12,380 bases of DNA from Candidatus Altarchaeum sp. Its GTDB lineage: Archaea > Altiarchaeota > Altiarchaeia > Altiarchaeales > Altiarchaeaceae. The DNA is taken from positions 1 to 12,380 of the forward strand of contig JAGWDQ010000026.1 of assembly GCA_018260615.1 (NCBI GenBank), given 5' to 3'. Numbering within the stretch: the stretch's first letter is position 1; every line of letters starts with the position of its first letter. A program made the translations under genes and the position numbers. This document shows, in pieces, positions 3,760 to 12,380 of this stretch. The notes under the pieces were generated by a model, which was not told where the DNA came from, did no database searches, and worked only from the letters and a program-made list of their open reading frames with translations.

Positions 3760-3902
3760 TCACACAAAGTCACCAGGTTACAGAATATAACTCCTTTGTG
3801 TCTCTGTGTCTTGGTGCGATTTTCAAAACGCAGAGTTTTGAAAATATCCGAGCGTTAGCGATGTTAGGAACTAATAAAACGAACTTTCCTGTACGATAAA
3901 AA
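3760..3902 (+). repeat. CACAAAG-arm palindromic repeat plus AATAAAACGAACTTTCCTGT tail, copy A (interrupted); sister copy at 10198-10302
   Basis: cacaaagtcaccaggttacagaatataactcctttgtgtctctgtgtcttggtg and aataaaacgaactttcctgtacgataaaaaa align almost base for base with 10209-10262 and 10272-10302. Lies between convergent genes. Confidence 0.9.
3819..3865 (+). mobile_element. 47-bp double-hairpin unit inserted into repeat copy A
   Basis: attttcaaaacgcagagttttgaaaatatccgagcgttagcgatgtt is absent from the sister copy at 10264 and is homologous to 8284-8329. Confidence 0.7.
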
Positions 3903-8179: not shown

Positions 8180-8536
8180 AGTTCGTTTCACCCTCATTTT
8201 TAAATCGCAGAGATTTGAAAATCTCCGAACGAAGTGAGGTGAAGATTTAAAAATTTCCGAGCAATATCAAAAATGCTTCAAGCATTTTCAAATCGTAGAG
8301 ATTTGAAAATCTCCGAACGAAGTGAGGTGATTTTTGAATATCCCAAAAATCCTGTAGATTTTTGCGATAGTAAAAATGCTTCAAGCATTTTTAGTATCCT
8401 AAAAACCTTGAAGGTTTTTACGACAGCGAGGTGATTTAAAAATCTTATAAATTTTAAAGATTGAAAACTCATATTTTCAGTATTTAAAAATCCTGTGGAT
8501 TTTTAAAGATTGAAAATCTTGCAGATTTTCAGTATA
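8180..8536. repeat. Nested cluster of palindromic repeats (REP/BIME-like mosaic)
   Basis: Two 46-bp double-hairpin units (8196-8241, 8284-8329), a tandem ~56-bp two-hairpin unit (8268-8370 and 8371-8426), a split GAGC..GCGA module (8244-8263 + 8423-8437), and tandem A-tract units (8434-8481, 8482-8532). Confidence 0.9.
8284..8329 (+). mobile_element. 46-bp double-hairpin unit inserted into a pre-existing hairpin
   Basis: Flanked by ATTTT at 8284-8288 and 8330-8334. Removing 46 bp restores the perfect stem tcaaaaatgct-tca-agcatttttga, whose intact sister is at 8371-8393. Confidence 0.75.
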
Positions 8537-10358: not shown

Positions 10359-10563
10359 CCTCACACGGAGACACAAAGAACTATGATATATATACTCTGT
10401 CACCTCACTTCGTTCGGAGATTTTCAAATCTCTGCGATTTGAAAATAAATTCGCTTCGCTCTCATTTTTTAAATCTCAAAGATTTAAAAAATCTCCGAGC
10501 AACAGCGAGATGATATTTTCAAAACTCTCCGTTTTGAAAATGGCTCTGTGACTTTGTGTGAGG
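10359..10563. repeat. CACAAAG-arm repeat, copy C, carrying a 149-bp cassette of hairpin modules
   Basis: 20-bp arms 10359-10378 and 10544-10563 (16/20 inverted match). CTCTGT is duplicated at 10395-10400 and 10544-10549. The insert contains a reverse 46-bp unit (10401-10446), a GAGCGAAGCGA module, and hairpins at 10466-10490 and 10516-10540. Confidence 0.85.
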
Positions 10564-10794: not shown

Positions 10795-12060
10795 TCACAT
10801 CCCCACCTCTATCTTCACATTCAACCTGTTTTCCAATCTTTCCTTTATTTCAGAAATTTCTATTTGCAGATTTAGAATGCCTTTCTCAAATCGTTCCGCA
10901 TCTTTTTTATTTTGTTCAGTCCTTATGTTTATATCGGCAATGCATGTTTCGGTCCTTTTTATTTCATCCCTGACATCGTATCTCTTAATATCCTCATTAG
11001 TCCTTTTTTCCTTTTCCAAAATTTCTTTATACCTTTTCTTTTCCTCAACAATGACTGAAAAGTCCTTTTCATAAGTCAAAATTTTCTCCTGCTCGTCTTC
11101 GTTCAAACCGGCAGGCAGTTTCAGGAAATTTAATAGTTCATTGTCATCCCTTTCAAGGAAAATCTTCGGATTGTCTATATAAAGAGAAATTTCCATTATG
11201 TTATTTTTCCTCCTTATCTTTTTCAATATCCTGCCGGCTGAAGAAATTTTTGAATAAATGCTGCTTTCTATTCTGTCCTTCTCTGTTAGAATTTTACTTT
11301 GCTCATTCAGTGCATCATTCATTAATTTAAATTTTTCCGATTCTTCCAGTTCTTTCTGTCTTTCCTGATGCTCTTGCAGTTCTCTCTCAAAGTCAATTAA
11401 TGAATTTTTTATTTCCGCAGTCGCTTTCTTCTCGCTGATGAATGTATTAAATTTGTCATCAAGAATTTTGTGTTCTTCATATTGTTCAATATTCATTTTA
11501 TTTAAATCCATCGCATTATTAGCAAGTATTTTTAAATTTCTCCTGAAATTTTCCATCTGGGAATGTGCAGCAGCAACATATCTGCCGTATTGTATATCCG
11601 TCTCTCCGCAGGTATGTGCAATTTTAAAAATTAACGACTTTATTTCGGAAATATTTGCATCTTTGTCTATCTCCGTATTCAGCACATTTTCCATAATTTT
11701 GATGAACATATTCTTATTGCTCTGCACAATTCTTTCTGCTCTTTTATTTGGCATATTACTAATTTTTTCTATTCTAATTTCTTCAACAATGTTTTTCATA
11801 TTTTTCATAGACCTCATACATTCGTCAATTAATGGCATTGCTTTCTCTTTTGTTGCATTTTCATCTTTTTCCTGCTTTTTCTTTATAAAAGCATCCAAAT
11901 TTTTATACAAAATTTTCTCCCTGTCTGATTTTTCTAAATTTTCATTGTTTTTATTTGTTTGTTCTGCCTGTTGTTTTCCTGCGTGCCTTTCTTCCGTTTC
12001 TTTTCCTTTTCCAAAAATTTTACCCAAATCTCCCAAAATCTGTGTGAATTTACCGCTCAT
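10795..12060 (-). CDS. Uncharacterised predominantly alpha-helical / coiled-coil protein (421 aa)
   Basis: Long K/E-rich ORF with heptad character. ATG at 12060 (aacaaacATG, MSGKF...) preferred because the upstream extension to 12237 crosses a TATA box, the IS end and tnpB. No Walker A or other catalytic motif seen. Confidence 0.8.
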   Translation of the reverse strand: MSGKFTQILGDLGKIFGKGKETEERHAGKQQAEQTNKNNENLEKSDREKILYKNLDAFIKKKQEKDENATKEKAMPLIDECMRSMKNMKNIVEEIRIEKISNMPNKRAERIVQSNKNMFIKIMENVLNTEIDKDANISEIKSLIFKIAHTCGETDIQYGRYVAAAHSQMENFRRNLKILANNAMDLNKMNIEQYEEHKILDDKFNTFISEKKATAEIKNSLIDFERELQEHQERQKELEESEKFKLMNDALNEQSKILTEKDRIESSIYSKISSAGRILKKIRRKNNIMEISLYIDNPKIFLERDDNELLNFLKLPAGLNEDEQEKILTYEKDFSVIVEEKKRYKEILEKEKRTNEDIKRYDVRDEIKRTETCIADINIRTEQNKKDAERFEKGILNLQIEISEIKERLENRLNVKIEVGM

Positions 12061-12175
12061 GTTTGTTGCGTTTAATTTTAGTATTGTTAGATGCAATTTA
12101 TGTTGAATTATATAATTGGCAAAACCTACTTTGAGTGATTTCGCTTTCTTTTCAGAATGCGAATTTGTCAGATTT

Positions 12176-12380
12176 TCAATATACCTCCAATCTAACCGGA
12201 TGACACCCTGCACCCTGTATTCCATTTGCGAACGCATTTGGAAATGCTTTCTTTATTATGTTGTAAGCACCATTTAAAAATCCTTTGAGGATTTTTAAAT
12301 CTCCGAACGAAGTGAGGTGATTTACATCAGCATTTATGATTTTGCCCGATAATGTTTTAAACAATCCTCTGCAAATTCTC
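12176..12380 (-). CDS. tnpB: RNA-guided endonuclease TnpB (IS605 OrfB/IS1341-type), C-terminal fragment with a 16-aa in-frame insertion in RuvC-III; possibly inactive
   Basis: Minus frame from 12379 reads RICRGLFKTLSGKIINADVN[HLTSFGDLKILKGFLN]GAYNIIKKAFPNAFANGIQGAGCHPVRLEVY*. Without the bracket this is the familiar R..RGLF.S..G..INADVNGAYNI..K.FP.AF..GI.G...HP TnpB tail. Confidence 0.88.
   Translation of the reverse strand, partial: RICRGLFKTLSGKIINADVNHLTSFGDLKILKGFLNGAYNIIKKAFPNAFANGIQGAGCHPVRLEVY
12272..12319 (+). mobile_element. 48-bp double-hairpin unit inserted in tnpB
   Basis: Flanked by ATTTA at 12272-12276 and 12320-12324. Contains a 12-bp stem (12273-12299) and a 27-mer (12297-12323) identical to 8307-8333. 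Confidence 0.85.

Follow-up and report, generated by a model that had tools for sequence, protein, structure and literature searches.

In a stretch of 12,380 nucleotides from the groundwater archaeon Candidatus Altarchaeum sp., one unit of a dispersed hairpin micro-repeat lies in frame within the 3′ end of a tnpB gene, and splits the RuvC-III motif of the encoded TnpB nuclease. This stretch, hereafter called the window, is the entire contig C26 of assembly G000 (148 contigs, 2.23 Mb, 33% GC). The explanation that we prefer, and regard as probable, is that this is a real nested insertion, probably inactivating, which represents ordinary collateral damage between selfish elements and has created neither a switch nor a new function.

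On the minus strand, the frame from 12379 to 12176 is open at the contig end and reads RICRGLFKTLSGKIINADVN-HLTSFGDLKILKGFLN-GAYNIIKKAFPNAFANGIQGAGCHPVRLEVY followed by a stop codon, which is the C-terminus of TnpB. In this frame, INADVN and GAYNI are parted by the 16 codons of HLTSFGDLKILKGFLN (...SGKIINADVN-HLTSFGDLKILKGFLN-GAYNIIKK...VY, then stop). A standard list of open reading frames (ORFs) begins the window tnpB frame at an internal TTG (12364) and, as the preliminary description of this DNA had pointed out, this start hid the split motif. The features of this region are as follows; residue numbers N375, G376 and D373 follow the numbering of an uninserted paralog.

12176..12380, minus strand: 3′ end of tnpB, 67 codons and a stop codon at 12176-12178, cut by the contig end.
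12272..12319, minus strand: micro-repeat insert of 48 bp, in frame and stop-free, between N375 and G376; a gap in the alignment with five paralogs.
12300..12319, minus strand: conserved 20-nt box of the insert unit, CACCTCACTTCGTTCGGAGA in gene sense, with a 17-nt loop.
12272..12299, minus strand: variable AT-rich hairpin of the insert unit, predicted stem 13 bp and loop 3 nt.
12326..12328, minus strand: codon of the RuvC-III catalytic Asp (D373), an invariant alignment column aligned to NADYNAARNI of Cas12f.

Because ATTTA occurs at 12272-12276 and again at 12320-12324, the boundaries of the insert are ambiguous by 5 nt. When only Watson-Crick pairs are counted, the hairpin at 12272..12299 has a stem of 12 bp and a loop of 5 nt. 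Two base pairs close the loop of the box: one covaries (positions 1 and 19), and the other is T-A (positions 0 and 20). The remainder of the window tnpB copy is not assembled in G000; contig C136 ends at the left flank of this copy.

By tblastn and DNA alignment, an element of about 1.32 kb, the sole gene of which is tnpB, was detected in eight copies. Five full-length paralogs without the insert (C70, C119, C13, C24 and C69) read ...INADVNGAYNI... in open frames of 404-406 aa, and match base for base on either side of a clean 48-nt gap. The copy in C42 is full-length and possesses the identical 48-bp insert in an open frame of 422 aa, in which the D-E-D triad is kept. The other copies are the 3′ end in the window and one copy divided over C110 and C130. 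In a 102-sequence alignment, the motif is unbroken in 101 of 101 aligned homologs. Among 1638 database relatives, the insert was found only in three near-identical proteins, and the profile match for the inserted copy ends at residue 375. Thus, the original proposal that the TnpB RuvC-III motif is split by an in-frame 48-bp insert is confirmed by the paralogs and by the homologs. Among named relatives, the closest tnpB is that of Candidatus Altiarchaeales archaeon A3, with 72% identity. The archaeon A3 gene is bracketed by a different inverted repeat, GCTTGTTGCAAA / TTTGCAACAAGC (L037:1449-1460 and 2742-2753), and its RuvC-III motif is contiguous.

The assignment to the TnpB family was made on the full-length paralogs, not on the window fragment. 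NCBIfam NF040570 (guided_TnpB; cut-off 100) gives 190.5 bits for the inserted and 196 bits for the uninserted product, and Pfam OrfB_IS605 and Cas12f1-like_TNB also match the tnpB products. The products show sequence similarity to Cas12f structures, and the AlphaFold2 model matches ISDra2 TnpB (8h1j; TM 0.72 by target) and Cas12f. D193, E332 and D373 are invariant in the 102-sequence alignment and all three are present in the inserted C42 protein; the window shows D373 only. The invariance of D373 and its alignment to the Cas12f motif support the earlier statement that this Asp is the third RuvC catalytic residue. The contiguous motif and helix of the DxNAAxNI type, in turn, is absent from the inserted copies, in which it is split after DVN by 16 residues.

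We compared AlphaFold models with and without the insert, as the preliminary description had suggested. In the uninserted model, D373 is residue 2 of the helix spanning residues 372-384, and the predicted local distance difference test (pLDDT) value is 90-96 over residues 331-400. In the inserted model, this helix is interrupted and the C-terminal lobe is no longer confidently modelled: residues 372-390 are coil with pLDDT <50, the helix restarts at N391, and the preceding TNB/RuvC segment (331-370) drops to pLDDT 54-61. High confidence is retained in the N-terminal two thirds. A duplicated Asn allows the helix to start as ...LNGAYNI, and Phe389 would then occupy the position of the Asp. As judged from these models, the nuclease activity of the two inserted copies is most likely abolished or crippled.

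Some 140 nt lie between the insertion point and the right end of the element, and the insert may or may not fall within the guide-RNA scaffold. In the predicted RNA fold, the insert is a self-contained stem and the neighbouring predicted stems are unaltered. No Rfam family matched a guide (omega) RNA at the 3′ end of the gene or the right end of the element, and nucleotide conservation relative to the 72%-identical archaeon A3 gene gave no clear omega-RNA signal. As a separate observation, the CxxC...CxxC zinc finger that is usual in TnpB is absent from this clade (residues 335-360 of P0002; all paralogs). C338, S339, F340, D342, E344, R356, R359 and G360 are invariant over the 102 homologs, which come from archaea, Chloroflexota and an Altiarchaeum virus.

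The insert belongs to an abundant repeat family. In G000, the box CACCTCACTTCGTTCGGAGA is present in 165 copies with <=3 mismatches, and in 256 copies at nhmmer E <= 0.1. Each unit consists of the conserved 20-nt box and then an AT-rich hairpin, the sequence of which is variable yet complementary. Positions 1 and 19 form a Watson-Crick pair in 155 of 164 copies (C-G 101, A-T 41, G-C 9, T-A 4), and the base before the box, which is T in 162 of 164 copies, pairs with the A after the box (T0/A20). The T0/A20 pair and the covarying 1/19 pairs thus make the conserved 17 nt a loop, in the closure of which the flank takes part. Units measure 39-49 nt, most often 46; the 48 nt of the insert is not fixed. 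A sister family with the box AGTTCGCTTCGCTCTCA (48 copies in G000) has the same design. The further family units in the window are listed below.

8195-8242 and 8283-8330, plus strand: two family units, from the repeat families of the window.
10400-10446, inverted: one family unit, on the same basis.
3818-3865: a fourth, diverged family unit.

The insert had been described as the double-hairpin unit of this genome; the 165-256 copies, and three good further copies in the window itself, agree with this description.

The units show no bias relative to the gene strand (59 vs 55), and their numbers over tandem, convergent and divergent gaps are proportional to gap length. A role of the repeat as a terminator or functional RNA was rejected because of this lack of strand bias and of 3′-gap preference. 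Although about 80% of the genome consists of ORFs of >=150 codons, only 32 of 256 units lie in ORFs, which is a strong depletion from coding sequence; 44 of 256 units are at contig edges. We also considered whether the repeat targets tnpB and rejected this idea, because its density in the insertion sequence (IS) is not above that in intergenic DNA (about 5 units expected in 10.6 kb of dispensable DNA, 2-3 seen). Within the genus, the family was found in all three further genomes searched; 37 genomes from other genera of the class gave no copy. Two of the three genus genomes with the repeat gave no match to the tnpB family of the window. Head-to-tail arrays of five to six identical 48-bp units (C15:4903-5143 and C124:1490-1755) create spurious long ORFs.

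The repeat flanking the unit is TAAAT in the window, GAAAAT in C53 and only AT at codon 16 of the tnpB gene in the metagenome contig L009, which is described below. Because this flanking repeat is also the end of the hairpin of the unit, a duplication is indistinguishable from insertion 3′ of (A)AAT. The flanks fit insertion of the unit 3′ of (A)AAT by a hairpin- or single-stranded DNA-based mechanism, as far as the sequences indicate. In the 164 units, the 5′ half of the stem is complementary both to the 3′ end of the unit and to its left flank. The Y1/RAYT transposase (PF01797) was detected in none of four genus genomes (G000-G003, 65-87% complete), and control genomes were matched. We identified neither a parent IS of the micro-repeat nor an enzyme that mobilises it.

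A 48-bp family unit was also observed in the D-loop of a tRNA-Val-like 5′ part (D-arm and anticodon arm, CAC). This split copy is present at L005:911-1010 (G000 C84) and at about 6212 on the minus strand of G000 C59. It is without a recognisable T-arm and ARAGORN does not call it; in L005, it is followed after about 190 bp by an intact tRNA-Val(CAC).

The 48-nt insert is identical in C26, C42, L009 and L010, the last two being from two independent metagenome assemblies. L009 (JGI metagenome 3300029890) is 99.7% identical to the window 3′ end and its unique flank, and its other side matches the end of C136. Because L009 joins the window flank and the C136 end, it represents the window locus in another sample. 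L010 (ENA metagenome) corresponds to the C42 locus (99.7% over 8.5 kb), and contains the insert in an intact 420-aa frame. Two groundwater runs (X1 and X2) cover the region as Logan contigs, with single-copy flank depths of about 3484 and 2584. In both runs, the uninserted junction, in which the join 12271>12320 skips the 48 nt, has a depth of about 5.4-6x single copy. In run X1, a 71-nt Logan unitig crosses the GAYNI-side junction (12271/12272) without a mismatch at a depth of 5000 (about 1.4x). These depths roughly fit the 5-6 uninserted and 1-2 inserted copies of the assembly; Logan contigs in the repeat region are unitigs of 60-145 nt, and the state of a junction cannot be tied to a locus. 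Because the insert is shared by C42, L009 and L010 and is crossed by a mismatch-free unitig, it is not an assembly artefact. The comparison with other copies and reads that had been proposed at the outset thus recovered the uninserted junction, in five paralogs and in Logan contigs. A metagenome scan with the inserted-junction 22-mer gave 0 matches, which was not taken as evidence of rarity.

In L009, a second micro-repeat of 46 bp, from the sister family, is present at codon 16 of the window-locus tnpB (L009:290-335). It introduces a TAA at once and shifts the frame; gene calling resumes near residue 70. Thus, in the sister sample, the window-locus tnpB is broken upstream by a second micro-repeat, and this hit is disruptive. 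The preliminary description had regarded a broken upstream part of tnpB as the mark of a plain pseudogene. Such a break exists at the window locus in L009, but not at C42, where the gene is intact.

L012 (JGI 3300029891) is the C42 locus without the insert, and is the sole uninserted allele that we found at an orthologous locus. Nine clustered substitutions lie within about 240 bp around the site, and TAAAC replaces TAAAT at the junction. In the approximately 1 kb of aligned tnpB before this patch, L012 and L010 differ by one substitution. This pattern indicates that L012 probably arose by gene conversion from a paralog, or is a chimeric contig, and clean excision is disfavoured. L012 also has a 171-bp in-frame deletion, which takes out the strand before the RuvC-I Asp. 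The paralogs are mosaic: in L009, the body of the element is C119-like, the 3′ end is C70-like and the surroundings of the insert are C42-like. The exact hairpin of the insert was found only in the two tnpB copies. We also looked for a master copy of this hairpin, from which the unit could have inserted twice independently, and found none within 1 mismatch. Given identical 48 nt and a hairpin without any further genomic copy, the economical reading is that the unit inserted once and then spread.

The carrier of tnpB is bounded, in all complete copies, by the perfect 15-bp inverted repeat GAGTGATTTCGCTTT. In the window, the right end is as follows.

12133..12147, minus strand: right terminal inverted repeat (TIR), which reads GAGTGATTTCGCTTT on the plus strand; the 15-mer is present, inverted, in all complete copies.
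12126..12132, minus strand: 7-bp target-site duplication AAAGTAG (gene sense), present on both sides in L009.

Clear target duplications of 7-8 bp were observed in five of eight copies (ATTATTT, AAAGTAG, ATGTTGTT, ATAAATTT and GTTTTAT(T)), and imperfect ones in two further copies; none was found at C24. ATTATTT is the duplication of C42 and AAAGTAG is that of C26/L009, and both inserted loci keep their inverted repeats. In both X1 and X2, a Logan contig of about 1.8 kb joins 12132 straight to the C136 flank with a single AAAGTAG. Therefore, the IS site of the window is empty in those two populations, and the window copy of the element is a recent arrival, or at least polymorphic. IS200/IS605-type elements are without inverted repeats or target duplications (PMC4810608). 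The element studied here does not have the IS200/IS605 architecture: it possesses 15-bp TIRs and 7-8-bp duplications, and the pair of filled and empty sites confirms one duplication. The Y1 TnpA that mobilises IS200/IS605 elements was detected in none of the four genus genomes. It is thus a carrier of tnpB of the TIR and target-duplication type, unlike IS200/IS605 or IS607, and is apparently active. The description of the insert as a micro-element that parasitised a selfish nuclease holds, since a dispersed repeat unit lies inside a transposon-borne tnpB.

We propose the following sequence of events. One unit of a hyper-abundant hairpin repeat, limited to this genus among the genomes searched, would have inserted once into a copy of the multicopy tnpB-only IS. 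The landing site would have been beside TAAAT, in the first turn of the helix that bears the third RuvC catalytic Asp. With a length of 48 nt and a stop-free sense phase 0, the unit would have left the ORF open. The inserted allele may then have reached a second locus by transposition of the element, by gene conversion among the mosaic paralogs, or by both. The insertion parts Asp373 from its positioning helix NGAYNIIKKA, and would thereby abolish or cripple the nuclease. Because 5-6 uninserted paralogs are left, the damaged copies would be free of selection; they would be free-riding and mobilisable through their intact ends. The insertion, the identity of the repeat, its presence at two loci and in several populations, the intact ends and the second hit are direct observations; the loss of activity, the neutrality and the route of spread are what we infer from them.

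That the frame stayed open requires no special cause. About one third of the units have a length divisible by 3, and three of the six combinations of phase and orientation of the insert unit are stop-free. Because the unit length is variable and half of the phases are stop-free, an open-frame hit is not unlikely: an open frame after insertion is roughly a 1-in-6 outcome for the family and a 1-in-2 outcome for the insert unit. The rarity of frame preservation that the preliminary description had implied is not borne out by these values. Family units were also found in the open frames of other genes in G000.

C112:2011-2037: unit in the isoleucyl-tRNA synthetase (IleRS) ORF, 1141 aa.
C78:2781-2807: unit in the ORF of the DP2 (large) subunit of DNA polymerase D (PolD), 1093 aa.
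C119:12572-12599: unit in a DNA methylase ORF, 837 aa.
C44:38679-38704: unit in the RadC ORF, 414 aa.

All three sense phases are represented in these ORFs (HLTSFGD, TSLRSEI and LTIVRRFS), and the antisense orientation once (IleRS). Compared with its counterpart in 1ile, the IleRS segment that holds the unit has about 29 additional residues. Open-frame units are the expected survivors in genes; dispensable genes keep both kinds, and both were seen.

Several points weigh against an inactivated, neutrally spreading allele. Family units are tolerated in frame in essential genes (IleRS and PolD), and C42 keeps a full 422-aa ORF. L010 and C42 differ by about 10 synonymous and 3 non-synonymous changes, which resembles purifying selection. 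However, these differences fall in tracts identical to other paralogs, and we rejected the ratio of non-synonymous to synonymous change as evidence of selection; the synonymous excess may represent conversion tracts copied from selected paralogs. Furthermore, a loss of AlphaFold confidence does not measure activity, the catalytic Asp itself is kept, and 16 residues might in principle be accommodated as a bulging loop. The last point leads to an alternative in which the 16 residues loop out at the surface and TnpB stays an active RNA-guided nuclease. The kept triad, the intact ORFs at C42 and L010, the in-frame units in IleRS and PolD, and a helix that could begin at the duplicated Asn are all consistent with it. 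We nevertheless judge it unlikely. The site is not in a loop but within the first turn of the helix 372-384, two residues past the Asp. It falls in the motif that is best conserved in the clade and that all 101 homologs keep contiguous. Phe389 would take the place of the Asp on the restarted helix, and the whole C-terminal lobe loses model confidence. The unit in IleRS, in contrast, sits in a variable linker.

The preliminary description had raised a binding-only, TldR-like outcome. As an incipient exaptation of this kind, the product would have been kept by selection as a nuclease-dead RNA-guided DNA binder, or as a dominant-negative regulator of the copy number of the element. In favour of it, at least two assemblies share the open-frame inserted allele at one locus, as do Logan contigs of two further runs; model confidence is high for the N-terminal two thirds, and dead TnpBs are known from TldRs to remain capable of binding (10.1101/2023.11.30.569447). 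We consider this outcome very unlikely, because the triad, the inverted-repeat ends and the 7-8-bp duplications are intact, the inserted copies lie in unrelated contexts without a conserved partner gene or a new gene association, and the sister copy at the window locus is already broken again. Since the insert is identical everywhere, it is young, and the intactness of the ORF is therefore uninformative. A reversible switch had also been suggested; hairpin-aided slippage between the 5-bp TAAAT repeats would precisely remove the unit and restore tnpB. Direct repeats that flank a hairpin are a geometry favouring slipped-strand deletion; here, direct 5-bp repeats flank a strong hairpin, and another sample has an uninserted allele at the C42 locus. 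This allele is, however, L012, which, with its nine clustered substitutions and TAAAC, resembles a conversion tract or chimeric contig rather than the product of clean excision. Fixed copy numbers would give junction depths in the range observed, and with 5-6 intact paralogs a one-copy switch would be without obvious phenotype. Such a switch is highly improbable. Processing of the transcript that takes out the unit and yields a normal protein, as in the splicing of an archaeal bulge-helix-bulge intron, hardly deserves credence. The host is an archaeon, and a family unit also splits the tRNA-Val-like sequence in its D-loop; yet the insert is predicted to be a perfect 13-bp hairpin with a loop closed by covarying pairs, its boundaries are paired and not placed in 3-nt bulges beside a 4-bp helix, and there is no complementarity between the exon sequences on either side. 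Genes contain few units, and those that survive in ORFs are open-frame, as if translated; ARAGORN does not call the split tRNA copy, and an intact tRNA-Val is alongside. The bulge-helix-bulge intron was therefore rejected on structure.

Collateral damage between selfish elements, which we prefer, has parallels in other organisms. In Haloquadratum walsbyi, SMR-A small mobile repeats target IS605-type (tnpB) transposons and PATEs (PMC3119063; Dyall-Smith et al. 2011). Like the window unit, SMR-A is an archaeal, transposase-less, short repeat, nested in tnpB elements with no obvious long target duplication; its mobilisation mechanism is likewise not known, and the outcome is inactivated transposon copies. 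In contrast, SMR-A is about 110 bp long with prominent terminal inverted repeats, prefers subterminal palindromes and lies mostly outside the ORF, whereas here the unit is 46-48 bp, consists of a conserved loop and a variable hairpin, and lies in the ORF and in frame. A high load of small repeats is known from Ca. Altiarchaeum hamiconexum, which is reported to have the highest cMITE density among archaea (PMC11602168).

The preliminary description had also compared the insert with the Rickettsia palindromic elements (RPEs), and the units in frame in the IleRS, PolD large subunit, RadC and methylase genes strengthen this comparison. RPEs reportedly occur in frame in protein genes of Rickettsia (Ogata et al. 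2000; Claverie and Ogata 2003). They are reviewed in PMC10969869. In both cases, a dispersed palindrome survives in ORFs through a kept frame and stop-free phases, and here this extends to essential genes. RPEs are about 100-150 bp, bacterial and typically located at protein surfaces; the window unit is three times smaller, archaeal and in a catalytic helix. By size and homology it is not a member of the RPE families, as its units are 39-49 bp, its host is an archaeon and its sequence is unrelated. The family further resembles the REP/BIME/REPIN repeats with RAYT (PMC3733652), which are short, very abundant extragenic palindromes, often in arrays, with variable complementary stems. Unlike with REP/BIME, no Y1/RAYT gene was found in the four genomes (65-87% complete); the family has no GTAG or CGTC tag, and its conserved part is the 17-nt loop, not the stem.

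Wiegand et al. (10.1101/2023.11.30.569447) assign a protein to the TldRs when at most one conserved DED residue is left, or when the C-terminal RuvC/zinc-finger domain is lost. The inserted TnpB is similar to TldRs in that its RuvC site is probably disabled and its RNA-binding part looks intact. However, the inserted TnpB retains the complete triad as well as the C-terminus. TldRs have lost the transposon context and gained conserved gene partners and promoter-directed guides, none of which was seen here: both inserted copies keep their ends and duplications, in unrelated neighbourhoods. The case is thus a fresh instance of known events, namely nested mobile repeats and in-frame palindromic insertions, and on present evidence it does not reveal a new regulatory mechanism.

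If a dead, guide-loading binder were kept, hairpin micro-repeats would provide a way to turn a nuclease into a binder in a single step, and the dead TnpB could brake the nuclease of its own element or start a TldR-like regulator. In a weaker variant, the repeat family would act as an anti-transposon device, as proposed for SMR-A of Haloquadratum. The window offers a clean natural example of a selfish element disabling another at single-helix resolution, in which filled sites, uninserted paralogs, an uninserted orthologous allele, a second locus and a second independent hit are documented. It is also a natural test of insertion tolerance in the RuvC-III helix of the TnpB/Cas12 fold, which bears on the engineering of compact editors, and a marker of small-repeat activity in the Altiarchaeales lineage. 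For annotation, ORF callers and contig ends hide such insertions in Altiarchaeales, which are rich in miniature inverted-repeat transposable elements, and 13-16 extra codons of the HLTSFGD or TSLRSEI type in open frames are best taken as repeat insertions.

Downstream of tnpB in the window, an ORF of 480 aa (10795-12237, minus strand) begins inside the tnpB 3′ end and reads over the right inverted repeat. The true start of this gene is probably an ATG near 12060, about 70 bp past the end of the IS. With a start near 12060, the IS, and any guide derived from its flank, would adjoin the promoter region of that gene.

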